Origin: a phage
Length of the DNA: 64,000 nucleotides
Assembly (NCBI GenBank): GCA_033648345.1
Contig: GCA_033648345.1_4121.1
Strand: one strand, 5' to 3'
Shown here: positions 27,539 to 42,081 of the stretch, piece by piece
How positions within the stretch are numbered: the first letter of the stretch is position 1
Layout of the letters: every line of letters begins with the position of its first letter
Position numbers and translations under genes: made by a program
Notes under the pieces: generated by a model
What the model was told of the DNA's origin: nothing
The model's database searches: none
What the model saw: only the letters and a program-made list of their open reading frames with translations

Positions 27539-27583
27539 AACTAAAATCTCCATATAATAATTATAATGTATTTACAAAAAAAA

Positions 27584-27609
27584 TACCAGTACGTATTTCA
27601 GTACTGGTA
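27584..27609 (-). terminator. hairpin terminator
   Basis: TACCAGTAC-8 nt-GTACTGGTA + T8 on minus strand. Confidence 0.65.
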
Positions 27610-27613
27610 TCAT

Positions 27614-28795
27614 TTATGGTAAAATGATAGATTGTAACGAACTCATACCCAATGCTGGAACACTAGCCTGTGGTGCTGGAGAATTCAATTTTGGTGATGA
27701 AACCGCATATGACATTCCTGAACCCAAATCTGGATCAAAAACTACAGCACAATAATTCCCACTATATATAAGTCCATTCTTGTATCCTTGTGCACTTTGA
27801 ATGCATTTCGTGAACGTACCAATATCTGTAGTGGCATTTATTAAGTTCCTCCCACGATAACCGCAGGTGTATATGAAATTATCATCGCCTATGTACATAC
27901 TAGAATCCCCAGAAGAACTACATAGATACGACATATAAGCACGCATGTTTTTAGGAGCAACTGACAATGTACCTGCATAGAATTTATTATTCGAACCCGT
28001 AATATCACCATCACCCAATGCACCAAAACTTCCCCAGCCAGTACCGTAATATCTCTTATCACTCAAAAATATAATACAGTTGTTATTACACATCTTGATT
28101 TGATATATCAATGAAGGATCAACCCCAGGGAATGATTCAGTGAATGTTAGAACAGCCGGATTAGTACTAGCATTACATTGATGATATGTATTAGTACCAG
28201 AGGACAAGATTGTTCCATTAGCTAACAGAATTCTCGCAGTACCAGTACCAGCAGTACAAGCAACTGCACTTCCTGCACTTCCGGTGTATATTTGTCTGAA
28301 AGTAAAGAAACCAACAGTCTTACTCCCTTGTCCACTCCAACCAGTATTATCAACACCACACGCCCATACTGAACCATCTTCCATGATCATCATTACACCA
28401 AAGCGTTCTATTGAAATATAAACAATCTTTTTAGTATCAACTGCACGAAATCTAGAAGTTATATCCGTCCAAACCTTTACACTTACCGAAGTCGCACTGG
28501 AAGTAGGATCTTCACCTGCTATCATTATCCTACCATTGTTAGTCAGATACATTGTCTGACTATAACCAGTACTACAAAACTTAACACTATCAGTCTCTGG
28601 AACTTTTAACCACTCGTTGTAACGTGTTACGTTAGTGTTATTACCTAACTGATAATAGTTATTCATCCCAGATACATATAACACACCATCCTTTATTAAA
28701 CTATAAGTCGCACTATAGTCACTACAGGTATAACGTGTACCCACAGGTCGCTCAACGACGTTCCCATAATCAAACATTCTAACAAAAGGTAACAT
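27614..28795 (-). CDS. RCC1-like beta-propeller repeat protein, MLPF family 10
   Basis: Starts MLPFVRMFDYGN; YYQLGNNTN, FGALGDGD repeats. Confidence 0.8.
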   Translation of the reverse strand: MLPFVRMFDYGNVVERPVGTRYTCSDYSATYSLIKDGVLYVSGMNNYYQLGNNTNVTRYNEWLKVPETDSVKFCSTGYSQTMYLTNNGRIMIAGEDPTSSATSVSVKVWTDITSRFRAVDTKKIVYISIERFGVMMIMEDGSVWACGVDNTGWSGQGSKTVGFFTFRQIYTGSAGSAVACTAGTGTARILLANGTILSSGTNTYHQCNASTNPAVLTFTESFPGVDPSLIYQIKMCNNNCIIFLSDKRYYGTGWGSFGALGDGDITGSNNKFYAGTLSVAPKNMRAYMSYLCSSSGDSSMYIGDDNFIYTCGYRGRNLINATTDIGTFTKCIQSAQGYKNGLIYSGNYCAVVFDPDLGSGMSYAVSSPKLNSPAPQASVPALGMSSLQSIILP

Positions 28796-28804
28796 GATTT
28801 TCTC

Positions 28805-29998
28805 CTATGATTGCCATAACTGCGTTGGCATTAATGTTAATGTTTTAATTAAGTAAGTACCATCCGGTAATTTACTACCTGAACCGTTAAAGCCCCCACA
28901 TGCATATAATTTATAATCTTTAGTTATAATTATTGTTCTGGACCAGTCTTTGGATGCCATAAGAACATTGTCATATCCACCCTGTATCGCACTTAAAGAA
29001 AACGCCCCCCACGAAGTAATTATTGTTGTATTTCCCGTCCCTTCTTGACCATATGTATTGATGCCTGCACTCCTGACATATGATGGGTATTGAGCCATAG
29101 GTGCACCAATTGTTGAGTTACCCATATTACTAGGACACAGGAAACCATCACTAATATTCACTATAACCTGTGAATTCTGAACTGTAGTTAATTGGTTTGT
29201 AGTTGAAGTAGTACCATTCCCAGCTTGTCCAGAATTGTTTCTACCACTCCAGTACACCCTACCGGCAGTAAACCACCAGGTAACATCATAAGTAGTACTT
29301 ATATAATCGACGTTGGTTCGTATTAATTTATTAGTAAAAACGTATGAGCTAGTCCCACCACCACTTTCACCAAAGTTATCCTTACCACAAAACCATGCTT
29401 CTTTATTTGTTTTGAGATAGTGCGTACCCTGTAATGAACACGCCAATTGAGAAACTTCACCCATACCAGTAACAACTGTTAGTACTGGAATGGGATTTTG
29501 GTTACCTGTTCCACATTCGGCATTTGCATTTTTACCACAAACAACGACTCTTCCATCGTGTAGTAATATTCTAGTACTTTCACCTATATGTACACTCTTG
29601 ATTAAATTAGCGTGTACATTTATTTTGTTAAATGCGGCAGTAACATCAGTCCATGTTCTAAAATAACCATTAACTGGAGTTGCATCTCCATAATCGGGGA
29701 ATGCTACTGTATTCCCTGTGAAATATATTCTATTATCCAAGTCAATCATCAATGATCCATGAACGCCTAACCAAAAGGCTGCACAGTGCGTTGCCAGTAC
29801 TGTAAAAGTTGAAACTGCCGATCGATTCCCTAGACCTAATTGGCTCAAGTTATTACCACCATAACCGTATAGTGTATTCGTGGGCTTATGTAGATACATA
29901 GCATTAGTATAATGTTGCTGTAAAACATCAGTGAACTCAACTGGATCAGGAATAGGCAGTTTATTCCCGTACTTAACCATTCTAGCAAAAGGTAACAT
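28805..29998 (-). CDS. RCC1-like beta-propeller repeat protein, MLPF family 11 (close paralogue of 25195-26397)
   Basis: Starts MLPFARMVKYGN; ends LMPTQLWQS. Confidence 0.8.
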   Translation of the reverse strand: MLPFARMVKYGNKLPIPDPVEFTDVLQQHYTNAMYLHKPTNTLYGYGGNNLSQLGLGNRSAVSTFTVLATHCAAFWLGVHGSLMIDLDNRIYFTGNTVAFPDYGDATPVNGYFRTWTDVTAAFNKINVHANLIKSVHIGESTRILLHDGRVVVCGKNANAECGTGNQNPIPVLTVVTGMGEVSQLACSLQGTHYLKTNKEAWFCGKDNFGESGGGTSSYVFTNKLIRTNVDYISTTYDVTWWFTAGRVYWSGRNNSGQAGNGTTSTTNQLTTVQNSQVIVNISDGFLCPSNMGNSTIGAPMAQYPSYVRSAGINTYGQEGTGNTTIITSWGAFSLSAIQGGYDNVLMASKDWSRTIIITKDYKLYACGGFNGSGSKLPDGTYLIKTLTLMPTQLWQS

Positions 29999-30045
29999 AA
30001 TTCCCTCCTTTATTCATTATACTATATTTAATCAAAAAGAAAAGC
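29999..30045 (-). promoter_or_regulatory. conserved -10-only promoter / SD cassette
   Basis: TTAAATATAGTATAATGAATAAAGGAGGGAATTATG. Confidence 0.6.
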
Positions 30046-30061
30046 CAGTACTCATTTAATT

Positions 30062-31207
30062 TTAACGAGGTATAACTATTTTTTTGAATAATCCAGTATT
30101 TCCTGCATTTTCTTCTTCATATGGAATTGTACCCATACCAGCAGTTCTGCCACCATTCCCTGAACCATACAGTTCTCCATTCTTAATCATGAATGTTATC
30201 ATATAACCATGTGTCATTTTATCATATGGAACTGGTTCAGTTATATTATTACATGCTCGCCATGTACTAATAACACTAGAGTTCGTTATACCATCACCTG
30301 ATGCGTTTCCTCGACCAGCGAAATACCATATCCCACCTGCTCTAACGTGTGCTTCATAATTAGAACCACCTATGTAATCAATCGCAGTACTAGGAATACT
30401 AGAAGCTGGTATCTTTGTGATTGTTCTAAGACTGTTAATAGTGCCATTAGTGCCATCACCCAACTGTCCATATATTTGTGAACCGAATACATATAGCCCA
30501 TCACTCTTTAATACGTAATTAGCACTATATGCATTTTCTGAATTTATCTGTAATACTCCAGTAGTAACAGTAGTCAATGTGGTAGTTGTACCAGTCGAAC
30601 CAATACTAGATTTTTTCCCACTGTACTTTAATGTTCCATCATTGTATAATACAAATGAAGCATTATCAGCGGTTACACCAATATCTTTAACATCAACTTC
30701 TGGTGTCAATGTCAGTACTGATACTCTTTGGTCAACAGCCCCAGTAAAAACTTCACCGTTGTTATTGTAACCCATCTTATATAATTTATTATCTATTGTT
30801 AATAATAATGTAACGCCGTTTCCTATAACTATTTTACTATATGTGTCATTCACATCATCAAAAATACCAAGTATTTCTGTCCATACACGATAAGTAGTAT
30901 TAACACCACGATAGATTTGAGCACCAGTACTCCACCATGTGCCATCATTTTTACGTACTAATATTCCGTGTGTATCACCAGTAGTCCAAAATTCCTTTAC
31001 ATCAGTTAAACATAAAACCCACTCTTCAACTATAGTAGGAGAACTACTACCAGTACCTAATTGATAGTAAAAATTATGCCCTCTGCCATATAATCTTCCG
31101 TCTTCTAATAAAATAAACACATTATTCTGTAAAACTTTTACCATCTTTATACCAACTGGCACAGGTGCTTCATTCCCACAATCGAACATTCTAACAAAAG
31201 GTAACAT
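30062..31207 (-). CDS. RCC1-like beta-propeller repeat protein, MLPF family 12
   Basis: True start MLPFVRMFDCGN at 31207; YGQLGDGTNG, YYQLGTGSS repeats. Confidence 0.8.
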   Translation of the reverse strand: MLPFVRMFDCGNEAPVPVGIKMVKVLQNNVFILLEDGRLYGRGHNFYYQLGTGSSSPTIVEEWVLCLTDVKEFWTTGDTHGILVRKNDGTWWSTGAQIYRGVNTTYRVWTEILGIFDDVNDTYSKIVIGNGVTLLLTIDNKLYKMGYNNNGEVFTGAVDQRVSVLTLTPEVDVKDIGVTADNASFVLYNDGTLKYSGKKSSIGSTGTTTTLTTVTTGVLQINSENAYSANYVLKSDGLYVFGSQIYGQLGDGTNGTINSLRTITKIPASSIPSTAIDYIGGSNYEAHVRAGGIWYFAGRGNASGDGITNSSVISTWRACNNITEPVPYDKMTHGYMITFMIKNGELYGSGNGGRTAGMGTIPYEEENAGNTGLFKKIVIPR

Positions 31208-31251
31208 ATTCCCTCCTTTATTCATTATACTATATTTAATCAAAAATAAAA
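31208..31251 (-). promoter_or_regulatory. conserved -10-only promoter / SD cassette
   Basis: TTAAATATAGTATAATGAATAAAGGAGGGAATATG. Confidence 0.6.
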
Positions 31252-31270
31252 GCCAGTACAGAGTACTGGC
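31252..31270 (-). terminator. hairpin terminator
   Basis: GCCAGTAC-tct-GTACTGGC + T-rich tract (minus strand). Confidence 0.7.
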
Positions 31271-31277
31271 ATAGTAT

Positions 31278-32405
31278 TCAAAAAGGTAAATCAATTTGCT
31301 TAGTAATAATAGTATCTAACGGTATTGAACACAATGAGAAATTCTTTCCACCCGTATTTTTAGGATTATATCCATTCATCCATACATTATTACCTTCGTA
31401 AAATGTATTCCAGTATAAAGACCCACTATATCGTGTATTCGAATTGAACGATGTAAAATTGAATTCTTGAAATGCTGTAAAATATGGAAGGGAACTTGAA
31501 CTACTTCCCGTAAATGGGGTATGCCCAGTTGCTATTAGTTTGTTTGTATCTGCATTAATTAAAAATACAACACTAGTCGAATAGTCCAACGAATCAGGAT
31601 GATATATATTACTCATATCACCTATAGTAAAACCAACATCAAAAACTTTAATATGTGCACCACTACCAGCAAAAGTAGTTCCAGTTGCATATATTTTATT
31701 ATCAGATGTTATCATTACAAAACCAACACCAGAAACAAAACAGCATTTTATATCATAAGATATATCATCAAACAACGGAACAAATGTGGTTGCATCACCC
31801 GATGTTGCTTTAACTTGAAAGCTGTTATTTGAACCTGAACCATATACAGTTCCATCGTTTTTAATCTTAAACACTGTATCACCAAGGTAACCGCCAAATA
31901 TATTATCCACATTAGTGTCAAGTACAGTCCACGCTGAAACATAATTTTTATGTCCTAAACCTAATGCACCACTTCGATTCCATCCTCTTCCATAAAGTGT
32001 TCCGTCTTTCATTAATATAAATGCTGTATAACCACATAACATTTTTTTAATTTGGGTAACATCTATACCAGTGAAATACACAGCCCAGTCAGTATATCCT
32101 TGTTGGAAAGTATTAGAATTCGTGAATGCATATGTTGAACCTGAACCATATATTTTATCACCTTTAATAACAACGGAAAACGATCCTAACCATAAGTCAT
32201 CAACTTCAGTTGTGATTTGTTGAACTGCTCCTAACGATACAAACTGTGTACTTAAACCCGCATTATAGTTTGAATCTTCACCGTGTGCATATACAGTGCC
32301 ATCTTGCATTAGAAACATTTCAAGAGTGTAACTAACAACACTTTTCTTTATATTATTAACTTCGATTATATTCCCATAATCAAACATTCTAACAAAAGGT
32401 AACAT
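31278..32405 (-). CDS. RCC1-like repeat protein, MLPF family 13
   Basis: Starts MLPFVRMFDYGN; SGALGLGHKN repeat. Confidence 0.75.
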   Translation of the reverse strand: MLPFVRMFDYGNIIEVNNIKKSVVSYTLEMFLMQDGTVYAHGEDSNYNAGLSTQFVSLGAVQQITTEVDDLWLGSFSVVIKGDKIYGSGSTYAFTNSNTFQQGYTDWAVYFTGIDVTQIKKMLCGYTAFILMKDGTLYGRGWNRSGALGLGHKNYVSAWTVLDTNVDNIFGGYLGDTVFKIKNDGTVYGSGSNNSFQVKATSGDATTFVPLFDDISYDIKCCFVSGVGFVMITSDNKIYATGTTFAGSGAHIKVFDVGFTIGDMSNIYHPDSLDYSTSVVFLINADTNKLIATGHTPFTGSSSSSLPYFTAFQEFNFTSFNSNTRYSGSLYWNTFYEGNNVWMNGYNPKNTGGKNFSLCSIPLDTIITKQIDLPF

Positions 32406-32449
32406 AATTCCCTCCTTTATTCATTATACTTTATTTAATACAAATAAGA
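32406..32449 (-). promoter_or_regulatory. conserved -10-only promoter / SD cassette
   Basis: TTAAATAAAGTATAATGAATAAAGGAGGGAATTATG. Confidence 0.6.
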
Positions 32450-32477
32450 ATTCCTGTATCGAGTACTGGCATTCAAT

Positions 32478-33626
32478 TTATTGTAAAAAGGACATATCTA
32501 CTTCTGTATAACTAAGAATGTTTTGACCAGCAATTCCACCCATTACTACTATTGCATACCCACAATAATATAATTTCCCAGTGTCCGTAAGTATAAGTGA
32601 ACCAGAAGGTGTTCTTACCAAATTACACGAACTATTAAAAGAAGTATACGAAGGAGTATAGGAGTACTGATTAATATTATTACCAACACCTAATTGACCA
32701 CCCCTATTCGAACCAGATGCATAAAGTACTTCATCTGCTTTGACAATATGTGATGCCATGTTAGCAACACATGCATATACACCATATACCCCTGTACTCA
32801 ATAATGTAGGAGTCTTGTATTGAATATCAGTACTAGTAGATGTTCCACCTGTGCCAAATTCATTACCATATTGTGCTCCGTACTGCTTCCCACATGCGTA
32901 CAAATTATTATCCGATTTGATAAAAAATGTACTCTGATAACTTACATCAAAATCTATAACATCCGAAGAAATCATCGTTACCCCAGTAATCGAAGTTTGA
33001 TTACCAGTACCCAACTGGTAGTAATAGTTAAAACCACAACCCCATAAAGTATTATCTTCTCGCAAATAAATGTTACCAACAGCCTTTTTAACAGATGTTA
33101 TAGTACTGACCTTCTTGAATGTATTAAATGAATCAATGTTAGTACCATCTCCAAAGGAGGATATGTTCGATGCGTTATTAGCACCACAACAATATAATGT
33201 CCCATCCTTCAGTACTAAATTTACCTTCATATCATTAAAACTGCTCATGTACTCAATATCAGATACACTAATACCACCTGATGTTATCCACGTAGTACAG
33301 TCCGTCCATAACGTCTTCCTATCAGTTACCCCAGTAAATGCCTTCGTGTTACCAGTGATAAACACTTTACCAGTACCCTTTTCTTCATACAATTGACAAT
33401 CACTACTGTTATCTTCCAATAAAACCCTCTGTACATTCTCTGCACAAAGAATAAATTTACTCGATGCTACACCTGTTCCAGTACCCCAATTCGTCGCAGA
33501 AGATGCATACAACTTATGTGTTAGTGTATCATGCAAATACATAGAACCACTAGAATATATTTTAAAACGCCCTTCTTTCTCAGGTATAATATTCCCATAA
33601 TCAAACATTCTAACAAAAGGTAACAT
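32478..33626 (-). CDS. RCC1-like beta-propeller repeat protein, MLPF family 14
   Basis: True start MLPFVRMFDYGN at 33626 (the track's MNKGGN prefix is the SD); YYQLGTGNQ, GGQLGVGNN repeats. Confidence 0.8.
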   Translation of the reverse strand: MLPFVRMFDYGNIIPEKEGRFKIYSSGSMYLHDTLTHKLYASSATNWGTGTGVASSKFILCAENVQRVLLEDNSSDCQLYEEKGTGKVFITGNTKAFTGVTDRKTLWTDCTTWITSGGISVSDIEYMSSFNDMKVNLVLKDGTLYCCGANNASNISSFGDGTNIDSFNTFKKVSTITSVKKAVGNIYLREDNTLWGCGFNYYYQLGTGNQTSITGVTMISSDVIDFDVSYQSTFFIKSDNNLYACGKQYGAQYGNEFGTGGTSTSTDIQYKTPTLLSTGVYGVYACVANMASHIVKADEVLYASGSNRGGQLGVGNNINQYSYTPSYTSFNSSCNLVRTPSGSLILTDTGKLYYCGYAIVVMGGIAGQNILSYTEVDMSFLQ

Positions 33627-33671
33627 ATTCCCTCCCTTATTCATTATACTATATTTAATACAAATAAGAAA
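33627..33671 (-). promoter_or_regulatory. conserved -10-only promoter / SD cassette
   Basis: TTAAATATAGTATAATGAATAAGGGAGGGAATATG. Confidence 0.6.
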
Positions 33672-33690
33672 GCCAGTACAGAGTACTGGC
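33672..33690 (-). terminator. hairpin terminator
   Basis: GCCAGTAC-tct-GTACTGGC (minus strand). Confidence 0.7.
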
Positions 33691-33697
33691 CTATCAA

Positions 33698-34864
33698 TTA
33701 CGAAAAACGTGGATCATCAAGAACAAACACTGTACTACTTGGACCACCTTGTGTGGTGACAGCACTAGTACTGTAAAGAAAGTTACCATCCGTCATATAA
33801 GTTCTACGATTCGTACAAATAACTCTTACTTTATTCATATCGATATCAGGATTAGGTAATGGACATGAAGTATACACTGATACATCAGTACTTGTTCCTA
33901 TCCCCAGCGTACCTTCATTTGTGGTTGAACCGCTATTCAACCCACTAGCATATATACCACTGCTTGTAATAACAAAAGTGGCGTAGAATGGAGAACCTTC
34001 ACCTATATTTAATTTAGTTCCAGGTGGTTGTCTTGCCGCAGCAACCGCACCATATGCTTTCCCACCAGATGTGGCAAGATTACCAAGAGCACCATACTGT
34101 TGTTGTCCACCATTATACACTGTGTTAGTGCCATCACTGTTAGTGTGGATACCAATAGAATTATAGTTACTGTTGCTATATACTAACGCGGTATTCGAAG
34201 TAACTGTATTTCGTGTATATACTTTATATTGTTGGGTAAAATTACCACTAGTGGACGTACCCTGTACAGTTCCAGTGTAGTATATATATCCGTCTGTACC
34301 AATGAATGAGTGCATAACACTACCTGCAAAAATTTTTTCGGGAGTAACACCTGACGGTATTGTTGATTGTACAAATCTACCCACTACATTTGTTGTTGTA
34401 TTATTTCCCAATTGACCGGAGTCACCATAACCACTTGACCATATGGTATTGTTCTCAAGAAGAACACTAATTGATAATCTTGATAAAGCTATTTCTTTAA
34501 CATCACTTTCTAATGTATCAAAAAATGAAGTACAATTTGTCCAAGTGTTCACTACGCTAGAACTAACACCAATTTGTTTATTATCACCAGAACTATAATA
34601 ATTCCCATCATATGTTTGTATAAGTATAACAGAACTACCAACCCATACTTTATCAACTGAACCAAACGTTCTTGTCCATGTGGTAACTATATCCCCGCTA
34701 TTATTACCCAATCCAAAGCAACCACTACTATCTACACCTCGTACATATAAATCTCCTGAAGTCATCAGAACTGCACAGAATGATTGTGCACCTTTAACAT
34801 CTTTAATTGGCTCTGGTTCAGGTGCAACATTCCCATAATCAAACATTCTAACAAAAGGTAACAT
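33698..34864 (-). CDS. RCC1-like beta-propeller repeat protein, MLPF family 15
   Basis: True start MLPFVRMFDYGN at 34864; SGQLGNNTTTN, YGALGNLATSG repeats. Confidence 0.8.
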   Translation of the reverse strand: MLPFVRMFDYGNVAPEPEPIKDVKGAQSFCAVLMTSGDLYVRGVDSSGCFGLGNNSGDIVTTWTRTFGSVDKVWVGSSVILIQTYDGNYYSSGDNKQIGVSSSVVNTWTNCTSFFDTLESDVKEIALSRLSISVLLENNTIWSSGYGDSGQLGNNTTTNVVGRFVQSTIPSGVTPEKIFAGSVMHSFIGTDGYIYYTGTVQGTSTSGNFTQQYKVYTRNTVTSNTALVYSNSNYNSIGIHTNSDGTNTVYNGGQQQYGALGNLATSGGKAYGAVAAARQPPGTKLNIGEGSPFYATFVITSSGIYASGLNSGSTTNEGTLGIGTSTDVSVYTSCPLPNPDIDMNKVRVICTNRRTYMTDGNFLYSTSAVTTQGGPSSTVFVLDDPRFS

Positions 34865-34966
34865 ATTTCCTCCTTTATTCATTATATCATATTTACCCCA
34901 TAAACAAAACCCTTGACAACCTTCCAGTACTGATGTACTATAGAAGGAATATAAGGAGAACTACAC
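34865..34966. promoter_or_regulatory. divergent control region between the RCC1 array and the small-protein array
   Basis: Minus: TATAATGAATAAAGGAGG cassette; plus: TTGACA(34913)-N17-TACTAT(34936), AAGGAG RBS. Confidence 0.6.
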
Positions 34967-35194
34967 ATGACAAATACTCTTAAGTACTACCTCAATACTC
35001 TAAATGAACTAGAGTACGCGAAGTTTCTCGCGGATAGTTCGTGGCTAATTGAGCTAAAAACACATAACAGTACTGGATGTAACCTTATGCTGAACAATGC
35101 ACTTGATACCCTTGTAGTGAGTATTTTACACAGCACCATCTGCGGGGATAGCAATAAACAATTATCAAAAATCTTAGTACTGGTAGCTCTATGA
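34967..35194 (+). CDS. small Tyr-rich protein, tandem family (divergent member)
   Basis: 75 aa; first gene of array, AAGGAG RBS. Confidence 0.6.
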   Translation: MTNTLKYYLNTLNELEYAKFLADSSWLIELKTHNSTGCNLMLNNALDTLVVSILHSTICGDSNKQLSKILVLVAL

Positions 35195-35403
35195 ACACTA
35201 TGAACATTGAACAGTACTACATTGATGCACTACCAACAAAAGGTCTACGAGAAAGCCTACTGTATACACAAAATAATTATATAAACCTCAAACATTGTCC
35301 TAAACTCTTGAACTCGTACAGGAATAATAAAATAAGAAATGCTGTACAAGGGGTAGAAAGTATGCAATACTATTACATCCTAACCCTTTTAATCGAGCAC
35401 TAA
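35191..35403 (+). CDS. small Tyr-rich protein, tandem family
   Basis: MNTMNIEQYYIDALP...YYYILTLLIEH; near-duplicate architecture of 35602. Confidence 0.65.
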   Translation: MNTMNIEQYYIDALPTKGLRESLLYTQNNYINLKHCPKLLNSYRNNKIRNAVQGVESMQYYYILTLLIEH

Positions 35404-35404
35404 T

Positions 35405-35590
35405 ATGTATAAAGAATTCTACTGTAGTAAGCTGCACAAACAATACAGAGATTCATTTCCCAATGAACCTATGGATATGAATAGTCCCTTTTATAAATTT
35501 GACTTCAGACTGGAGACACGTTATGCAATAGAACATCAATTTCCTGAAACTAAGTACTTATCTATCATGAACCTCATCTTTAAGTTCTAA
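35405..35590 (+). CDS. small Tyr-rich protein, tandem family
   Basis: MYKEFY...LIFKF; 61 aa. Confidence 0.65.
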   Translation: MYKEFYCSKLHKQYRDSFPNEPMDMNSPFYKFDFRLETRYAIEHQFPETKYLSIMNLIFKF

Positions 35591-35601
35591 AAGAGTACTA
35601 T

Positions 35602-35814
35602 ATGAAAACTATGAACATACACCAGTACTACTTAGATATTCTCCCTAAAGATGTACAGTTCATCCTTAAACAAGAATACAGTACTTTAAAAAACCTTAAA
35701 AGAACCGCACCGAATGTATTAATCCTGCACCAAGAAAATGTAGTTGATAATATTCTACAAGGTGTACCAGGGACCGAGTACTTTAACATAATAAGGCTAA
35801 TTACATTACCATGA
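35602..35814 (+). CDS. small Tyr-rich protein, tandem family
   Basis: MKTMNIHQYYLDILP...; 70 aa. Confidence 0.65.
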   Translation: MKTMNIHQYYLDILPKDVQFILKQEYSTLKNLKRTAPNVLILHQENVVDNILQGVPGTEYFNIIRLITLP

Positions 35815-35996
35815 ATCATATATTATACTATTACCAAAATCTATCCGACAGGGACAAGTACACCCACAACTCCAATGTATGGTACTACAAACGCGGTAGT
35901 ATAAGAGACAAACAACATTACTTCTGTATTGCTATAAAAGAAGCACTAACAACTAAGTACACGTACAGAGCAGTACTGAAACTTATTGATATGTAA
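35811..35996 (+). CDS. small Tyr-rich protein, tandem family
   Basis: MNHILYYYQNLSDRDKY...VLKLIDM; ATGA overlap. Confidence 0.6.
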   Translation: MNHILYYYQNLSDRDKYTHNSNVWYYKRGSIRDKQHYFCIAIKEALTTKYTYRAVLKLIDM

Positions 35997-36006
35997 AGAG
36001 AATACT

Positions 36007-36192
36007 ATGAATACATTTGAGTACTATACAAATAAACTATCTATGCCAGAAAGATCTCATCTCTATGTGTGGAGAAATGCGTATAAAAGCGGCAATAAAC
36101 TTATACAAAGAAATTCCCTTACAGTGTGTACAAATTTAATTAAAGCAGAGTACCGCACATATATTGAAGTACTCAAACTGATAGCAATATAA
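36007..36192 (+). CDS. small Tyr-rich protein, tandem family
   Basis: MNTFEYYTNKL...VLKLIAI; track start 35986 is an extension. Confidence 0.6.
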   Translation: MNTFEYYTNKLSMPERSHLYVWRNAYKSGNKLIQRNSLTVCTNLIKAEYRTYIEVLKLIAI

Positions 36193-36200
36193 GGTACTCT

Positions 36201-36380
36201 ATGCAAGAATTCTATATCTATAACCTCCAGCACAAAGATAGATACAACTATAATAAATTCCAAAGGTACTACACAGTCGGAAACAAAAGAGATAAAAAAC
36301 GATACTTTCTATCATGTACAGTAGAAGCACAAAACGAAAAGTACAGGTACAGAGAAGTACTTAAACTAATCTCTATGTAA
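36201..36380 (+). CDS. small Tyr-rich protein, tandem family (59 aa, not in ORF track)
   Basis: MQEFYIYNLQHKDRY...EVLKLISM; fits the family; the track lists only antisense ORFs here. Confidence 0.55.
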   Translation: MQEFYIYNLQHKDRYNYNKFQRYYTVGNKRDKKRYFLSCTVEAQNEKYRYREVLKLISM

Positions 36381-36388
36381 GGAATAAT

Positions 36389-36568
36389 ATGCAAGAATAC
36401 TATATAGAACACATAAACATTAAAGACCGTTTCATGTACGACACCTTCGTGAAGTACTACAACCTGGCAACTAACAGTACTAAAAATATTAATCTCAATA
36501 GCTGCATTCATCACGCACTAACAAAAGATAATCCCTTCAGGGAAATCCTCGCACTCGCATCTGTATAA
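36389..36568 (+). CDS. small Tyr-rich protein, tandem family (59 aa, not in ORF track)
   Basis: MQEYYIEHINIKDRF...EILALASV. Confidence 0.55.
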   Translation: MQEYYIEHINIKDRFMYDTFVKYYNLATNSTKNINLNSCIHHALTKDNPFREILALASV

Positions 36569-36578
36569 AGGAAACCAA

Positions 36579-37238
36579 ATGAAACTTAATGCACACAGCA
36601 AACAATACCTTAAGCACTTTAAGTACCTCAACAGTATTCAAGCAGAATCTTTTACACCAGCATATACGTATCACCCAAATGTACTAAAGAAACGAAATAA
36701 AAAGAAAAAATCCAGAAATGTTCTCGTATCTAAGAACCTCAAATCGTACTTGAAGAAAAATAATATAGCTCTTGCTTTTATTAATATCTATCATACTGAT
36801 TTAAAAGTATTGAGTACTAATACCAGCACAAAAGCACTAAAGAATGCATCTATCTATATACACATGGATAATATCCCGTGCACTATAATTCTATCTTTCG
36901 GGAATGTATACTTCTTCGGGAATTGTAATAGCACCCATGATATCAGTACTGCACAATTCCAAATCGGAGATATGTACTGCATGGGTTCAGAAAAAATACA
37001 CGATAACATGCACTTCTTCCAAAAGCAACGTACTAACGAAACTGATACAGTACTGCAATTCCTCAAAGAACTACAAAACAAAGAATTAACACCAGAAGAA
37101 GAATTCATGTACAGTACTGTAATCGATAATCCAGAACTCTATAAAAACGCGTACAAACTAACAAAACATGTACAGGAACTTATCAGTACTGATAAGAAAT
37201 TTCATAACCTCATTACGTATATTACAAACTATGTATAA
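36579..37238 (+). CDS. hypothetical protein, paralogue of 17071-17721 product
   Basis: 219 aa, basic N-term, shared C-terminal segment; embedded in the small-protein array. Confidence 0.7.
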   Translation: MKLNAHSKQYLKHFKYLNSIQAESFTPAYTYHPNVLKKRNKKKKSRNVLVSKNLKSYLKKNNIALAFINIYHTDLKVLSTNTSTKALKNASIYIHMDNIPCTIILSFGNVYFFGNCNSTHDISTAQFQIGDMYCMGSEKIHDNMHFFQKQRTNETDTVLQFLKELQNKELTPEEEFMYSTVIDNPELYKNAYKLTKHVQELISTDKKFHNLITYITNYV

Positions 37239-37413
37239 AGAATACTACAAAGATAAAATCCCAATGCATCTACAACACCATATACCAAACGTTGCATTGG
37301 GTATCAAAGATCACGCAAAGATAATGTTCCAACAATGTACTAAGTACACGCTCATATACGATGATAATCCATATATGCTGTACTACGTAGTAATGCTAAC
37401 ATTCAGGTACTAA
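37231..37413 (+). CDS. small Tyr-rich protein, KEYY family
   Basis: MYKEYYKDKIP...VVMLTFRY; ATG overlaps upstream stop. Confidence 0.65.
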   Translation: MYKEYYKDKIPMHLQHHIPNVALGIKDHAKIMFQQCTKYTLIYDDNPYMLYYVVMLTFRY

Positions 37414-37415
37414 TA

Positions 37416-37613
37416 ATGAATATAAAAGAATACTACGTAAGTAAACTTGCAATTAATTACCAAATGCTTATTCCCCGCAATCCTGTAGATTTCAAAGATA
37501 AGAGCAAAACAATATACTACCGCCAGCATATAATGCATACAATAGAAGAAGATGATTATGATGATGATATGTATAACCTGTACAAAGTACTAACACTTAT
37601 ATTCAGGTACTAA
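37416..37613 (+). CDS. small Tyr-rich protein, KEYY family
   Basis: MNIKEYYVSKL...LTLIFRY. Confidence 0.7.
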   Translation: MNIKEYYVSKLAINYQMLIPRNPVDFKDKSKTIYYRQHIMHTIEEDDYDDDMYNLYKVLTLIFRY

Positions 37614-37614
37614 T

Positions 37615-37800
37615 ATGTATAAAGAATACTACATAGAGAAACTCCCAATGTATCTCCAACACCTTGTACCAACAGAACCATTGGGTATAGAAAAAGACTA
37701 CGAAAAAGACTACTTCGTTAAGTGCACTAAATCCTCAATAGATATTGAGGACTATAATCGAGTACTGTATCACATCCTTTTACTAATATATAAGTACTAA
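37615..37800 (+). CDS. small Tyr-rich protein, KEYY family
   Basis: MYKEYYIEKLP...LLLIYKY; junction GGTACTAATATG. Confidence 0.7.
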   Translation: MYKEYYIEKLPMYLQHLVPTEPLGIEKDYEKDYFVKCTKSSIDIEDYNRVLYHILLLIYKY

Positions 37801-37801
37801 T

Positions 37802-37990
37802 ATGAATAACCACAAAGAATACTACACACAATTTCTCCCCAGCATTTTTGAACACTACGCCAGATATAAAGTCCCCCTGGATAACGATTTGGCAGTACTG
37901 GGATTCAATAACTGCATAGAACGAAGTATAGAAAATAGTAGTACTTATGACCAATTATATAACATCATACTACTCATATACAGGTACTAA
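37802..37990 (+). CDS. small Tyr-rich protein, KEYY family
   Basis: MNNHKEYYTQFLP...IILLIYRY. Confidence 0.7.
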   Translation: MNNHKEYYTQFLPSIFEHYARYKVPLDNDLAVLGFNNCIERSIENSSTYDQLYNIILLIYRY

Positions 37991-37991
37991 T

Positions 37992-38180
37992 ATGCATAAA
38001 GAATACTACACAAAATATTTCCCAATGTACCTCAGTACTAATCTATTAGATAAACCTCGCGGTATCAATGCTCAAAACGATAAAGTGTACTTTACTATGT
38101 GCACTAAAGCATGTATACTAGATTTTGATAGCTATCATCGAGTACTGTATCATACCCTGTACCTAGCTTTCGTGTACTAA
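37992..38180 (+). CDS. small Tyr-rich protein, KEYY family
   Basis: MHKEYYTKYFP...; track start 37947 is an extension. Confidence 0.65.
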   Translation: MHKEYYTKYFPMYLSTNLLDKPRGINAQNDKVYFTMCTKACILDFDSYHRVLYHTLYLAFVY

Positions 38181-38190
38181 AGAGGCCAAT

Positions 38191-38397
38191 ATGAACGAAC
38201 AGAAAGAATTCTACACCAAATACCTCAGTGCATCAGAACAAATGTTTCTAAGGAGTGTATCACCTTTACGTTTAGATACACCACACGCCAGAGATTGTTT
38301 TAATAATTGTATACGTATTACTCTAGAAGCTTTAGAAAACAATAACAAAAATATTCAGTACTCAGGCGTAATGGGACTAATATTCTTCTATGAATAA
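38191..38397 (+). CDS. small Tyr-rich protein, KEYY family (subtype ending FYE)
   Basis: MNEQKEFYTKYLSASEQMFLR...NNCIRITLEAL...LIFFYE. Confidence 0.7.
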   Translation: MNEQKEFYTKYLSASEQMFLRSVSPLRLDTPHARDCFNNCIRITLEALENNNKNIQYSGVMGLIFFYE

Positions 38398-38578
38398 CAA
38401 AGAATTCTACATAAACCATCTGGAACTAAACTCCCAAATGCTTATACCACTAAACCCAATAGATATCAAGGATAAGAAAAATACCAAACAATTCCACTAC
38501 CACACACTATGTGCTATCAACCCTGATTATAATACATATAAACTGTACTACATTCTCGCCCTAATATATAGGTACTGA
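38390..38578 (+). CDS. small Tyr-rich protein, KEYY family
   Basis: MNNKEFYINHL...LALIYRY. Confidence 0.7.
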   Translation: MNNKEFYINHLELNSQMLIPLNPIDIKDKKNTKQFHYHTLCAINPDYNTYKLYYILALIYRY

Positions 38579-38579
38579 T

Positions 38580-38765
38580 ATGCATAGAGAATACTATATA
38601 CAATTTGTTAAAGGGAACTACAAACACGCCGTCCCCGTAAACCCCTTAAATTCTAATGACCCAAGTACTATATTCTTGTTCCATGACGCAATACGTACAG
38701 TACTCAATACTAAAGATGAACAGGTGCAGTACGTATTCTTACTATTACTTATATACAGACACTAA
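38580..38765 (+). CDS. small Tyr-rich protein, KEYY family
   Basis: MHREYYIQFV...LLLLIYRH. Confidence 0.7.
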   Translation: MHREYYIQFVKGNYKHAVPVNPLNSNDPSTIFLFHDAIRTVLNTKDEQVQYVFLLLLIYRH

Positions 38766-38782
38766 AGCACTAAGGTACTAAC

Positions 38783-38986
38783 ATGTATAAAGACTTCTAC
38801 ATAAATCATCTTAGTCCCGCAAAACAATCATTCTATAAAGCAAAACCAATGAAAATGAAATTACAAAATAATTTCACAAAAATATGCTATAATAACTGTA
38901 TACGTAGTACTATACAAGCACTGCAAGAAAATGACAACAATAAACTATACTCCAACATAATGGCACTCCTATATATCTATGAATAA
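38783..38986 (+). CDS. small Tyr-rich protein, KEYY family (subtype ending YE)
   Basis: MYKDFYINHLSP...NNCIRSTIQAL...LLYIYE. Confidence 0.7.
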   Translation: MYKDFYINHLSPAKQSFYKAKPMKMKLQNNFTKICYNNCIRSTIQALQENDNNKLYSNIMALLYIYE

Positions 38987-39188
38987 TGAACATAAAGAAT
39001 TCTACTCCAAACACCTCAGCCCCTCAGAACAAATGTTTCTAAGGACTACAGCACCTTTAAATACTGATACATATTTCGGCAGATTATGCTACAATAATTG
39101 TATTCAAATGACTTTAAACGCAAACGACAATAATAACAGTACTAACATGTACTCAGGCATCATAGGTATACTATTCCTATATGAATAA
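38979..39188 (+). CDS. small Tyr-rich protein, KEYY family (subtype ending YE)
   Basis: MNNEHKEFYSKHLSPSEQMFLR...NNCIQMTL...LFLYE. Confidence 0.7.
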   Translation: MNNEHKEFYSKHLSPSEQMFLRTTAPLNTDTYFGRLCYNNCIQMTLNANDNNNSTNMYSGIIGILFLYE

Positions 39189-39369
39189 TTACAAAGACTT
39201 CTATTTGAATACACTACCTACTGTACTTTCTCTAAGTGCTCAATGTAAAATCCCGCTGGATAATCCTTACGCCAGATATAACTATTCCATAACTGTTAAT
39301 CGATGTATAGAGAATCATTGCAGTACTAACCAGTACTATAACATAATCCTACTTATATTCAGGTACTAA
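39181..39369 (+). CDS. small Tyr-rich protein, KEYY family
   Basis: MNNYKDFYLNTLP...IILLIFRY. Confidence 0.7.
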   Translation: MNNYKDFYLNTLPTVLSLSAQCKIPLDNPYARYNYSITVNRCIENHCSTNQYYNIILLIFRY

Positions 39370-39370
39370 T

Positions 39371-39550
39371 ATGAACGAACACAAAGACTTCTATATAAGA
39401 AAACTAACATTCGTCCCCGTAAAAATATATAAAGAATGCGACCCAAGATTATACCTATGGCACTTCAATGAGTGCATAAAAGATTCTATATACCCTAAGA
39501 ACTATAAAGAACAATTGTGCTCAGTACTAACACTAGTACTATCATATTAA
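39371..39550 (+). CDS. small Tyr-rich protein, KEYY family (59 aa, not in ORF track)
   Basis: MNEHKDFYIRKL...NECIKDSI...LTLVLSY. Confidence 0.55.
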   Translation: MNEHKDFYIRKLTFVPVKIYKECDPRLYLWHFNECIKDSIYPKNYKEQLCSVLTLVLSY

Positions 39551-39563
39551 TAGAGATAATACT

Positions 39564-39755
39564 ATGCATAAAGACTATAAAGAGTACTATATAAGTAAAC
39601 TCAAAGAGAATGAACAAGCATGGGTTAACAATTTAATCCCCCTGGCAATGACTCAATACGAATTTAATATGTGTACAAAGATTGTTTTAACTAGTAATGA
39701 TATCTCTAATACGTACTACTTCCTATTAAGAGTACTATATGGTACTTTGAAATAA
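39564..39755 (+). CDS. small Tyr-rich protein, KEYY family
   Basis: MHKDYKEYYISKLKENEQAW... Confidence 0.65.
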   Translation: MHKDYKEYYISKLKENEQAWVNNLIPLAMTQYEFNMCTKIVLTSNDISNTYYFLLRVLYGTLK

Positions 39756-39766
39756 TAAGGTATACT

Positions 39767-39973
39767 ATGCAGAACATAAAAAACTATAAAGAGTACTATA
39801 TAAGTAAACTACCACCGACTGACCAAGCATGGATTAGATCTATAATAGTACTGGCATTTAATAGATATGCATTTAACAGATGTACCGAGATTGCTATAGA
39901 CCCTTATAATATTAAAGAGAATGTACAGCATAATCAGTACTACTATATGTTAATGCTTATATATAGGAAGTAA
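39767..39973 (+). CDS. small Tyr-rich protein, KEYY family
   Basis: MQNIKNYKEYYISKLPPTDQAW...MLMLIYRK; last member. Confidence 0.65.
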   Translation: MQNIKNYKEYYISKLPPTDQAWIRSIIVLAFNRYAFNRCTEIAIDPYNIKENVQHNQYYYMLMLIYRK

Positions 39974-40036
39974 TTCAACATATAGACAGGGGAAGCTCCG
40001 CAGGGAAAGCATTGGACAGGCTTTAACATATGTTAT

Positions 40037-40096
40037 ATATGTTAAAATTCAGCCTGCTCGACGTCTGAATTGTTAAAATTCAGCCTGGACAAATGC
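40037..40096 (+). repeat. direct repeat GTTAAAATTCAGCCTG x2 with small palindromes
   Basis: atgttaaaattcagcctgctcgacgtctgaattgttaaaattcagcctggac. Confidence 0.8.
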
Positions 40097-40127
40097 GATC
40101 ACTAGGATTCTCCCCAGGCTAAACCCC

Positions 40128-40198
40128 GTAATCATATGTAGTCATAAGTAATCATATATAAACATTTATGTAATCATTTATAATCATTGTAGTGATTA
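40128..40198 (+). repeat. iteron-like GTAATCA repeats (4 direct + 1 inverted)
   Basis: GTAATCA at 40128, 40148, 40170; TAATCA 40181; inverted TGATTA 40193. Confidence 0.75.
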
Positions 40199-40210
40199 GT
40201 ATTGAGTACT

Positions 40211-40236
40211 AGAGTGTAATAGAGTGTAATAGAGTA
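40211..40236 (+). repeat. tandem 10-mer AGAGTGTAAT x2.5
   Basis: agagtgtaatagagtgtaatagagta. Confidence 0.8.
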
Positions 40237-40387
40237 CAGGAATGTGCACGTTTAATCAAGAACGTAGCAGTACTGCCCCAAAAGTATTCAGTACTGAAGG
40301 TGTCGATATCCCACTAAGTAGGCAGAGGAAGTCTGCCGTACTTTTTAGTTTCCAAGCTCCTTTTCCATTTTGCAAATTACATCAAAT

Positions 40388-40415
40388 GTAATCAAAAGTA
40401 ATCACGCAATGATTA
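40388..40415 (+). repeat. second GTAATCA iteron cluster
   Basis: GTAATCA at 40388 and 40398; inverted TGATTA at 40410. Confidence 0.7.
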
Positions 40416-40681
40416 GTACTGAATTATTACTTTCACCTTAATTTCAATTACCCCTTTACCCTTCGGGGTAAAATTCCATTACCCCTTGAGGCTCCAGCAA
40501 AAAGTTGGTTAGTACTCCATCCTAAATCTCGATCCTAAAAATTTTGGAGTACCTATGAAATAAAAGTTGGATCTTCGAAAGTTGAAATTTACGTTGGGAC
40601 GTTTGTGATTTGTGGGATATAATGATGTTTGTAGTCGGGTAGTTCTCAAGAATATCAGTACTGAATGGTGAAAGAAAGTTA

Positions 40682-40709
40682 TTGACATTATGATTCAGTA
40701 CTGTATAAT
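40682..40709 (+). promoter_or_regulatory. orphan sigma70-like promoter (no ORF of 60 aa or more downstream before 42082)
   Basis: TTGACA-N16-TATAAT with CAGTACTG abutting the -10, then GTTTTACATAGAGAG as in gene cassettes. Confidence 0.55.
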
Positions 40710-40892
40710 GTTTTACATAGAGAGATGAGTTGCCGCAAACAATTCATTCACTCTACTTCCTGTCGTGAGACAGTACAGAAAGATAGTTCCTCCTATGGGT
40801 GGTACATCTTTTAGAACCTCTTTTTTCGTAATATGAACAGTACTGATATTAACAGAATGGTGTCAATACTGATTTTAATCTAAAGCATTATG

Positions 40893-40912
40893 CCACCAGC
40901 TTGTGCTGGTGG
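40893..40912. other. inverted pair of Chi octamers forming a hairpin
   Basis: CCACCAGC-ttgt-GCTGGTGG. Confidence 0.85.
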
Positions 40913-41125
40913 ATTCCCTCTAACAGTATTCAGTACTACATGATAGTCTTCATCCTCCTAGGGTAACATAGTGAGGGCTATGATGGCAGTACTGAATACT
41001 CCTTTCACAAGATAGATCTATGGTATAGTACTGACGTATTTTGGGCGTAGTTACCCTGGATGGATTTTGGACGTAGATATGTCTAGCCCTCCAGAAGTCT
41101 GGAAGTAAATATGGCTATCCATCTA

Positions 41126-41208
41126 GACGGCTAAACGGCTAGATTTCTGGATGGCTGGGTGGCTGGGTGGCTGGGTGGCTAGACGTTTGGACGGCTAAAC
41201 GGCTAGAT
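41126..41208 (+). repeat. tandem GGCTGGGT x3.5 (41153-41180) flanked by 19-bp direct repeats
   Basis: GACGGCTAAACGGCTAGAT at 41126-41144 and 41190-41208. Confidence 0.85.
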
Positions 41209-41412
41209 GGTTACACGTCTGGAAGTATAGACGGCTAAATCAAAATTTTATTTTGTTTTTTCCAATAGTTCCCCTACCGCGTGGGGATAGTTTCCCCGCA
41301 GTATCTGGAGTTAGATTTTTCTGAATCTGGAATCATTATCTTATAAACTGGGGGCAATGTCAACAGCCTGGACGGATATTTTTAAAAATTTTTTCAGTAC
41401 TGAATTTTGGGC

Positions 41413-41433
41413 GTAACTATGCACCCGGTGGGC
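41413..41433 (-). repeat. conserved core element copy I (candidate small RNA)
   Basis: Minus strand: TATAAT(41466-41461)..ATCAAGTCGAGAAAGACTCAA-GCCCACCGGGTGCATAGTTAC. Confidence 0.7.
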
Positions 41434-41580
41434 TTGAGTCTTTCTCGACTTGATGGAACTATTATACAGTACTGGAAAAATAAAGCAATACCCTGGAAGC
41501 AAAAAAGTTTTAATTAATTTGCTTGCTATCCTGGGCCGGACTATGGTACTATATTTCAGTACTGAGAAAGTGCGTTTACC

Positions 41581-41603
41581 TGCTAGGGTGCGGGAGTGTA
41601 TCC
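41581..41603 (+). repeat. conserved core element copy J+ (partial)
   Basis: TGCTAGGGTGCGGGAGTGTATCC + T7; preceded by ACT-GAGAA-AGT mini hairpin. Confidence 0.6.
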
Positions 41604-41628
41604 TTTTTTTATATCTTGAATTTTGGGC

Positions 41629-41649
41629 GTAATTCCGCACCCTCTGGGG
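41629..41649 (-). repeat. conserved core element copy J-
   Basis: Minus: TTGACT(41704-41699)-N16-TATAAT..ATAGACGCGAGAAAGCGGAAA-CCCCAGAGGGTGCGGAATTAC. Confidence 0.65.
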
Positions 41650-41859
41650 TTTCCGCTTTCTCGCGTCTATGTAGTAATTATACGCTTTTTCAGGATCAAG
41701 TCAATACCTAAAAACAAAATAATTGAAAATAATTTAACGCGTTTAAACGGCCAGTAAAGCCCTGGAATGATTGGAATGGTGCAAATGTATAGCTTAGGTG
41801 TATTAATGCGTTAGAATGCGTCTGAGGCCGTTTTATGGGGTATAGGGATGATTTGGTGG

Positions 41860-41990
41860 ATTGATTCAGTACTGAATAATAGTACTACTATATAGAAAGA
41901 TAGTTCCCCTGGATGGTTGCAGTACTGAATGATAGTACTGAATAATAGTTCCCCTATATAGAAAGAAAACTATTTTAAAAAGTATTTGTA
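41860..41990 (+). repeat. direct repeats of about 45 bp built from CAGTACTGAATAATAGT and CTATATAGAAAGA
   Basis: cagtactgaataatagtactactatatagaaagatagttcccct / tagtactgaataatagttcccctatatagaaagaaaac. Confidence 0.75.
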
Positions 41991-42081
41991 GAAAGTACTT
42001 GCAAACTAAGTTTAACGGCGTATAATGTTTTACATCGAGAGCGGGAACACTTCCCGCTACATATTACGAGAGATTAAAACG
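41985..42081 (+). promoter_or_regulatory. promoter + 5' stem-loop cassette (PeSL-like, class AGTACTTGCA)
   Basis: AGTACTTGCAA..TATAATGTTTTACATC; hairpin GCGGGAA-cac-TTCCCGC. Confidence 0.7.

Follow-up and report, generated by a model that had tools for sequence, protein, structure and literature searches.

A tandem array of small tyrosine-rich paralogs in Asteriusvirus jumbo phages, apparently exchanged between strains as whole-gene cassettes

Tandem arrays of paralogous genes have been described in the jumbo phages 121Q and G (Hua et al. 2017, PMC5646251), a description echoed for phage phAPEC6 (PMC7247149). This work concerns an array at positions 34967-39973 (+ strand) of a stretch of phage DNA of 64,000 nucleotides (nt), hereafter called the window (GenBank assembly GCA_033648345.1, contig GCA_033648345.1_4121.1), where 22 consecutive open reading frames (ORFs) of 59-75 amino acids (aa) lie head to tail. 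The source of the window is a jumbo coliphage of the genus Asteriusvirus (121Q/PBECO4 group), the same phage group that Hua et al. dealt with in 121Q, where genes 234-248 (RCC1-like) and 249-265 (the array considered here) total 32. Their report does not go into coordinates, the definition of a family, selection, structure or signals for expression. Moreover, the genes of the array are 20-58% identical, not "very similar", and the sentence in question (PMC5646251) may or may not refer to this array. The papers on Sharanji and on phage fEgEco12 do not discuss it. Comparison of profiles indicates that 21 of the 22 ORFs belong to one superfamily of micro-proteins, and comparison between strains suggests that its genes come and go as units.

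Other phages offer partial parallels. In the hyperplastic regions of T4-type phages, small early ORFs are reportedly shuffled by means of conserved promoter/stem-loop cassettes (PeSLs), an account attributed to Arbiol et al. 2010. The likeness lies in the whole-gene exchange of small early genes of unknown function through short conserved boundary sequences. Unlike PeSL-bounded genes, however, the units of the array are paralogs of one family in what is probably a single operon, and the sequence that would recombine is a coding junction (C-terminal codons, Shine-Dalgarno sequence, start codon and N-terminal codons) rather than a promoter and stem-loop. Genes 37-60 of Bacillus phage SPO1 make up a host-takeover module of small early proteins, mostly unrelated to one another, several of which have demonstrated targets. 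Here the resemblance is in the two dozen or so small genes, densely packed, the strong host-type promoters, the good Shine-Dalgarno (SD) sequences and the supposed action on host machinery, but the array represents a single family, about 21-fold expanded, whose host targets are hypothetical. T4 packages internal proteins (IPI-III, the polymorphic IP loci) into its head, with processing at an L/I-x-E site. They too are small and variable, carry a conserved N-terminal motif and differ in number between related large myoviruses. A capsid-targeting role on this pattern was nonetheless dropped, because two virion proteomes lack members of the array and no L/I-x-E cleavage motif is present at the N-terminus. 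The resemblance to anti-defence proteins is circumstantial only (small size, early position, fast evolution, patchy distribution), and no homolog was found outside the genus.

The original prediction, made from the window's sequence, described 22 back-to-back Tyr-rich ORFs of one family, three of them missed by its ORF track. With regard to the ORFs, the description is accurate. All 22 begin with ATG, and the three ORFs of 59 aa (36201, 36389 and 39371) take their place in the series (the ORF listing of the window was made at a cut-off of 40 aa). Tyr constitutes 11.0% of the residues, compared with 4.8% in the other proteins of the window (2.3-fold), while Gly is reduced to 1.4% (0.2-fold). 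With regard to the family, some revision is needed. In an all-against-all BLASTP comparison, 48 of the 231 pairs match at E<1e-3, as against 0-1 in each of five shuffled sets, and single linkage of the ORFs, numbered m01 to m22 in order, places 15 in a core (m03, m09-m22), four in a group B (m05-m08) and two in a pair C (m02, m04), and leaves m01 as a singleton. Alignments were then deepened with orthologs pooled from eight relatives and compared using hhalign, with 40 column shuffles as control. The core matches B with a score of 31.8 (E=4.5e-6 over 57 columns; shuffles no higher than 14.3) and, with weaker support, C with a score of 22.9 (shuffles no higher than 18.1). The score of m01, 13.2, falls inside the shuffle range, and this ORF has only the N-terminal motif YYxxxL in common with the rest. 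Profile comparison thus points to a superfamily of 21 (15 core, four B and two C), of which m01 is not demonstrably a member. What stands of the earlier claim is the local head-to-tail expansion of one family, in three subfamilies and with one member fewer.

The core of the array is already catalogued as an unnamed phage family, phrog_11711, whose entry holds neither function, structure nor description of an array. All 12 core members scanned (m03, m09-m16, m20-m22) match it, with E-values from 2.4e-6 to 8.3e-28 over profile positions 1-62; the other three (m17-m19) match the core hidden Markov model (HMM) at E<=1e-21. No PHROG match at E<=0.01-0.1 was found for m01, m02 or m04-m08 (groups A, B and C). 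The connection of B and C to that core, made by profile-profile comparison only, is new here. A Pfam-A scan gave only sub-threshold noise, and a profile search of PDB sequences gave nothing. Even at the level of DNA, the best pair of paralogs is only 73% identical.

Outside the window, the family was found only in the phage's own genus. A word-indexed search of 5.8 billion proteins gave 46 hits, and an HMM search of the kind proposed along with the original prediction, exhaustive over 1.84 billion cluster representatives, gave 32, of which 31 are proteins of about 60 aa. The remaining hit, P0085 (531 aa, seven matched stretches), was considered as a possible fused array but rejected as a false positive, a low-complexity repeat protein. 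By tblastn, the family is present in 34 phage records, all of Escherichia or Salmonella jumbo phages. The family is thus an invention of Asteriusvirus, with high internal diversity. At the DNA level, positions 34900-40100 match Escherichia phage BF17 with 97% identity over 90% of the length. A further 34 Escherichia or Salmonella jumbo-phage records match as well, but over very uneven portions of the region, which for the 20 records listed extend from about 50% to 90%. The genes are already in GenBank, but often without annotation: BF17 has about 12 features for its 22-member array, and in more than 10 related records (e.g., H21, H22 and H24-H26) the tblastn matches fall where no feature is annotated.

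The pattern of substitution establishes that the ORFs are coding. The window was compared with four relatives by the method of Nei and Gojobori, pooling 12-17 orthologous members per comparison. The ratio of nonsynonymous to synonymous substitution rates (dN/dS) was 0.40-0.52 in the reading frame but 1.04-1.35 in the other two frames, and the substitutions concentrate at third codon positions. A ratio below 1 in one frame only, together with the excess at third positions, demonstrates frame-specific purifying selection. The selection is weak: constraint is lower than in the neighbouring genes, where dN/dS is 0.09-0.26.

The number of members differs between strains. The comparison of copy numbers suggested by the original prediction gave, by HMM count, 16 in 121Q, 17 in A4, 18 in TH47, 20 in slurp01 and fEgEco12, 21 in JP4, EC22.5-2 and ECO103, and 22 in BF17 and the window. 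The order of types is constant: A, C, core, a C or core gene, three to six B genes, a gene of about 220 aa, and finally eight to 14 core genes. Within this frame, m04, m14, m19 and m21 are patchy among the relatives, and the relatives carry cassettes with no counterpart in the window, while individual paralog lineages persist as far as the divergent phage A4, at 57-92% identity. Of the ends of homology blocks defined by megablast, 67% fall no more than 25 nt from a gene start, compared with 23% of random positions, in a count of breakpoints that are not independent (the relatives share ancestry). Some gaps in homology encompass whole genes cleanly: one runs from m10+20 to m11+6, another from the end of m16 to the start of m18. 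The patchiness of orthologs and the coincidence of block ends with gene starts indicate that whole genes have been gained, lost or replaced as cassettes via conserved junctions. Since all the paralogs are old (no pair exceeds 58% identity), the expansion is not a recent amplification.

The junctions merit particular attention. The spacing of the 22 ORFs to the preceding gene is -8, -4, +1, +2 or +8 to +17 nt, and the boundaries take stereotyped forms: AGGTACTAATATG, ATGA overlaps and 8-nt overlaps. Twelve of the 20 junctions between one micro-protein gene and another are overlapping or no more than 2 nt, and none is longer than 17 nt. An SD-like AAGG, AGGT or AGAG precedes 15 of the 22 starts, at about -10. 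The original prediction spoke of head-to-tail translational coupling; the stereotyped junctions are certainly there, and from spacings and overlaps compatible with it, we infer coupling along the operon. In members that end in R-Y-stop, the boundary reads AGG TAC TAA T ATG, so that the SD is the codon of the C-terminal Arg. That codon is AGG in six of seven such members, as against eight of the array's 48 other Arg codons. The other common ending, Y-E-stop, reads T ATG AAT AA and overlaps the M-N-N start of the next gene. Because SD sequences and start codons thus lie within the last codons of the upstream gene, the conserved C-terminal motif evidently reflects in part a dual-coding constraint, and what was taken earlier for a motif of the protein is, at least in R-Y-stop and Y-E-stop, dictated by the SD or start of the gene that follows and not by the protein alone. 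The same junction accounts for the repeat-like periodicity of 190-210 bp noticed before. It is the only periodic DNA element, 28-43 nt in length and present in 6-8 copies at spacings of 187-205 nt or multiples thereof; Tandem Repeats Finder detected no tandem repeat of a period near 200 bp in the array.

On the + strand, the array opens with m01 (34967..35194, 75 aa), the sole representative of group A, whose orthologs are found in all nine relatives examined at 67-93% identity. It shares an ATGA overlap with m02 (35191..35403, 70 aa, C), which is followed by m03 (35405..35590, 61 aa, core; E=2e-15 to phrog_11711) and m04 (35602..35814, 70 aa, C; E=4e-10 to m02). The B genes are m05 (35811..35996, 61 aa), in ATGA overlap with m04, m06 (36007..36192, 61 aa), m07 (36201..36380, 59 aa) and m08 (36389..36568, 59 aa). 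Consecutive as they are, the ORFs are not back-to-back throughout: the run is broken by an unrelated gene of 219 aa (36579..37238, phrog_29152), which the earlier account had omitted and which occupies the same position in all relatives. The core genes then resume with m09 (37231..37413, 60 aa), which overlaps the 219-aa gene by 8 nt, as it does in the annotation of JP4, and m10 (37416..37613, 65 aa), which is absent from eight close relatives but present in A4 as a 61%-identical version. Thereafter come m11 (37615..37800, 61 aa), m12 (37802..37990, 62 aa), m13 (37992..38180, 62 aa), m14 (38191..38397, 68 aa), the Y-E-stop of which overlaps by 8 nt the start of m15 (38390..38578, 62 aa), and m16 (38580..38765, 61 aa). 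An ortholog of m17 (38783..38986, 67 aa) was found in none of the nine relatives examined. The last genes are m18 (38979..39188, 69 aa; E=8e-29 to m14), m19 (39181..39369, 62 aa), found only in JP4, slurp01 and A4, m20 (39371..39550, 59 aa), m21 (39564..39755, 63 aa), also of patchy distribution, and m22 (39767..39973, 68 aa). Starts in the ORF listing are over-long for three members. The most plausible starts, 36007, 37231 and 37992 (the last in place of 37947), give back the family N-terminus, and the JP4 annotation agrees for the first two; in the case of m06, the ATG is favored over an upstream TTG at 35986, and the JP4 ortholog is annotated at equal length.

The array is separated from a divergent array of RCC1-like genes by a region of 102 bp. 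It contains a sigma70-type promoter-like site, TTGACA-17-TACTAT (34913..34941, +), with the palindrome CAGTACTG in its spacer (34925-34932), followed by the SD of the first gene, AAGGAG (34953..34958, +, kept in all relatives examined), and its ATG. The TTGACA, the embedded CAGTACTG, the GTACTAT and the AAGGAG are invariant in 10 genomes (nine close ones and the divergent A4), while the neighbouring bases vary, and so the divergent arrangement and sigma70-type promoter postulated originally have held up. Within the array, sigma70-like matches are not above chance (22 found, 33 expected), and neither a terminator-like site nor a convincing internal promoter was seen. Downstream there is only modest RNA structure (z = -1.97), with no clear intrinsic terminator before 40321. 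Given a single conserved TTGACA promoter and no internal signals, the array is most simply read as one early operon, probably with a single transcript. In the related phage CBB, RpoD-like promoters ahead of short ORFs were interpreted as markers of the early region (PMC5259590). Nine more sites in the window fit the pattern TTG(A/C)(C/A)(A/T)-N6-10-CAGTACTG, all on the + strand, eight of them in the region of small ORFs to the right and one at 9699. The members of this class (9699, 34913, 40682, 43477, 45145, 52184, 53191, 53813, 58423 and 60399) mostly precede small ORFs, and several run directly into TATAAT or a close variant, with 40682-40709 a perfect TTGACA-16-TATAAT. Perhaps CAGTACTG may serve as an operator or a promoter-specific element.

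The palindrome is in any event conspicuous well beyond the promoters. CAGTACTG occurs 63 times in the window where about one instance is expected, and its core, AGTACT, occurs 275 times in place of 21.6 (12.8-fold), by far the most over-represented 6-mer palindrome. The density of AGTACT per kb is 7.7-9.4 in the micro-protein array, 9.3 in the adjacent 39974-42024 and 2.6 in the RCC1 array, and the 219-aa gene has four CAGTACTG sites at 36944-37191. Since AGTACT falls in all three frames inside the array genes (13/9/13), it is best considered a signal at the level of DNA. The enrichment is equally present in all eight relatives. A literature search on CAGTACTG returned nothing relevant, and no explanation for the enrichment was found. 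One might suppose that the richness in Tyr is a by-product of AGTACT, but that idea was rejected, as only 13 of 95 TAC codons lie inside the motif.

The proteins themselves appear to be cytoplasmic. The longest hydrophobic run is no more than 11 residues, the N-termini are polar (MNNHKEYY...) and the grand average of hydropathy is mostly negative; no transmembrane segment or signal peptide was found, as would be expected of a small membrane protein of the holin, spanin or superinfection-exclusion type. Isoelectric points (pI) extend from 5.5 to 9.7. The coding strand of the array has a negative GC skew, unlike that of other + strand genes, owing to low G at the first and second codon positions and to a preference for Tyr, Phe and His codons ending in C. 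Structure prediction, also proposed at the outset, gave a confident model of m12 (AlphaFold2 with a 49-sequence alignment; mean predicted local distance difference test, pLDDT, 88.7; predicted template modelling score 0.72) with four helices, at residues 4-9, 14-19, 29-44 and 48-61. A Foldseek comparison of the model with the PDB found no match, and in BFVD it found only an ortholog of 93% identity. With no informative structural match, the four-helix fold gives no functional assignment.

Nor are the proteins found in virions. Gel-based mass spectrometry identified 62 virion proteins in phAPEC6 (PMC7247149); none is an array member, whereas eight or more are RCC1-like "DNA condensation" proteins. 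The JP4 dataset, likewise gel-based and supplied with sequences (PMC12648861, supplement 2), comprises 49 virion proteins, RCC1-like ones among them, and none carries the family motifs. The micro-proteins are probably non-structural.

These observations can be accommodated in the following model. The host-type sigma70 promoter at 34913-34941 would drive a polycistronic mRNA of about 5 kb, probably early, to be translated head to tail, each SD and start embedded in the last codons of the preceding gene. The products would be 21 anciently diverged paralogs of about 60 aa (cytoplasmic, rich in Tyr, poor in Gly, with four helices), along with m01 and the 219-aa protein. Each paralog lineage is individually under purifying selection, with non-synonymous change two to four times faster than in the neighbouring genes, and whole genes are gained, lost or replaced as cassettes by recombination within the 28-43-nt junctions. 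The proteins may then be small non-structural binders, with a conserved helical core and variable surfaces, that act stoichiometrically on host proteins in takeover or counter-defence, and the turnover of cassettes may adapt the repertoire to different hosts. That they are early-made, cytoplasmic, host-directed binders whose repertoire is tuned by cassette exchange is the reading we tentatively prefer, as a reasonable possibility falling short of a probability. The "battery of small inhibitors" imagined in the original prediction survives in this sense, as a best guess reached by inference only. A more specific version, in which each paralog neutralizes a different host factor or variant of a defence and the junctions serve as recombination sites for co-infecting Asteriusviruses, is more doubtful.

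Several considerations weigh against this model. Literature searches for this phage group gave no RNA-seq, Ribo-seq or proteomics of infected cells, and for that reason early timing and translation rest on sequence signals and selection. A dN/dS of 0.4 could reflect relaxed constraint instead of an arms race, and paralogs no more than 58% identical do not look like the outcome of recent adaptive amplification. The breakpoints counted near gene starts are, as already mentioned, not independent events. Finally, proteins of 7 kDa can escape gel-based mass spectrometry of virions, yet a protein of 4.66 kDa was detected in phAPEC6 (PMC7247149).

Other readings have to be weighed against the same evidence. 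The neighbourhood itself suggests one of them, that the micro-proteins are dedicated partners of the RCC1-like propellers (chaperones, assembly factors, adaptors or caps) within a co-expanded module. Upstream, the - strand carries 15-16 RCC1-like paralogs (15869-34882), each of about 380 aa. The two arrays are adjacent, divergent and joined by a common 102-bp control region, and both expansions are confined to the genus (only one RCC1-like gene is present in the related phage GAP32). Their copy numbers show a loose positive trend, with RCC1-like and micro-protein genes numbering 10/16 in 121Q, 13/20, 14/20 and 14/21 in other relatives and 14/22 in the window, but there is no 1:1 relation, and TH47 has seven RCC1-like genes for 18 micro-proteins. 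Furthermore, many of the RCC1-like genes have their own upstream hairpin (CCAGTAC..GTACTGG) and T-run and then TTAAATATAGTATAATGAATAAAGGAGG before ATG TTA CCT. Their signals, TAAATA..TATAAT..AAAGGAGG with no -35 element, contrast with the one TTGACA promoter of the array, which probably puts the two families in different temporal classes. RCC1-like proteins are in virions and array members are not, and a partnership leaves unexplained why the array stands at the head of the small-ORF region under the same class of promoter. With copy numbers uncoupled, promoter classes different and only one of the two families in virions, the role of propeller partner or adaptor, which the original prediction had also entertained, seems unlikely. 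An improbable reading, too, is that the proteins serve processes of the phage itself, as regulators or DNA-associated proteins linked to AGTACT/CAGTACTG or as an intracellular hetero-oligomeric scaffold. The motif is at its densest in the array and is found in its promoter, group B is strongly basic (pI 9.4-9.7), and a conserved core with many co-expressed paralogs is compatible with hetero-oligomers. However, no helix-turn-helix or other DNA-binding fold is seen in the model, acidic members are numerous (pI 5.5-6.0), turnover of cassettes from strain to strain would be unusual for a conserved internal machine, and an enrichment in all three frames, being a property of the DNA, does not need the micro-proteins.

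It might also be argued that the array has little function of any kind, comprising weakly constrained duplicates, largely dispensable, that headful packaging into a very large capsid tolerates. A dN/dS above that of the neighbouring genes and the free loss and gain of members between strains are in keeping with this, and Hua et al. proposed tandem duplication as a route of genome expansion in 121Q (PMC5646251). Mere filler would not, however, be expected to show a dN/dS clearly below 1 in the reading frame alone, paralog lineages preserved out to A4, an invariant promoter and 22 intact ORFs with their start, SD and coupling signals, particularly as neutral DNA, at a GC content of 33%, easily acquires stop codons. 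We regard this reading as rather remote. The most skeptical view, that the similarity is an artefact of composition and the ORFs not genes at all, takes its appeal from the same low GC content (about 33% for the genome) and from proteins rich in Tyr, Asn, Lys, Ile and Leu. It can be considered refuted: shuffling abolishes the pairwise matches, neither column-shuffled nor reversed profiles reproduce the profile-profile scores, purifying selection is confined to one frame, AlphaFold2 gives a confident model from the family alignment, and the Tyr content far exceeds that of other proteins of the same genome.

Some features of the surroundings deserve mention. The gene of 219 aa that interrupts the array is an orphan restricted to the genus, with a codon signature unusual in the same way as that of the micro-proteins. 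Its dN/dS, 0.74, is the highest measured in the region. No relation to the micro-protein family was found, the AlphaFold2 model was unusable (pLDDT 36), and no functional lead emerged. Directly 3' of the array lies a stretch of about 2 kb poor in ORFs (39974-42024), also an unannotated gap in 121Q, slurp01, fEgEco12 and A4, and beyond it a long run of small + strand ORFs. The stretch contains 11 CAGTACTG sites (40268-41927), several sites that resemble sigma70 promoters and direct repeats (GTTAAAATTCAGCCTG and TAATAGAGTG, each present twice), and the GC skew changes sign within it. Rfam recognized no RNA family there or anywhere else in the window. In the RCC1 array, the listed starts of the ORFs at 32478..33644 and 33698..34882 are too long, because ATGAATAA in the upstream motif was read as a start. 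A second, unrelated tandem array, at 62318-64000 and running past the end of the window, has at least seven small ORFs of 65-85 aa with a common (L/V)GTN(Y/F)QE motif and ATGA-type overlaps, so that arrays of micro-protein paralogs evidently recur in this genome. Three tandem paralogs of about 113 aa are found at 8015-9050 (+), and 121Q has a run of genes of about 112-122 aa (224-232) just upstream of its RCC1 array.

While the genes have been deposited before, what is new is the definition of the family with its subgroups B and C, the evidence for coding and selection, the structure model, the conserved promoter, the dual-coding junctions and the junction-mediated exchange of cassettes. HMMs of the family would correct annotation now missing from phages that are candidates for therapy, such as BF17, where only about half of the members are annotated. 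Most of the genome of jumbo phages consists of small genes of unknown function, and the array provides a clean, bounded test case among them: about 21 paralogs of one orphan fold, a single conserved promoter and natural variation in presence and absence between sequenced strains. If the proteins are directed at the host, then they would constitute a ready-made panel for discovering new phage-host targets or anti-defence activities in E. coli, and exchange mediated by junctions would be a simple mechanism by which such a repertoire evolves. An exchangeable repertoire, if true, would give phages a counterpart to the variation of repertoires by cassettes, different both from PeSL shuffling and from recent "accordion" amplification.

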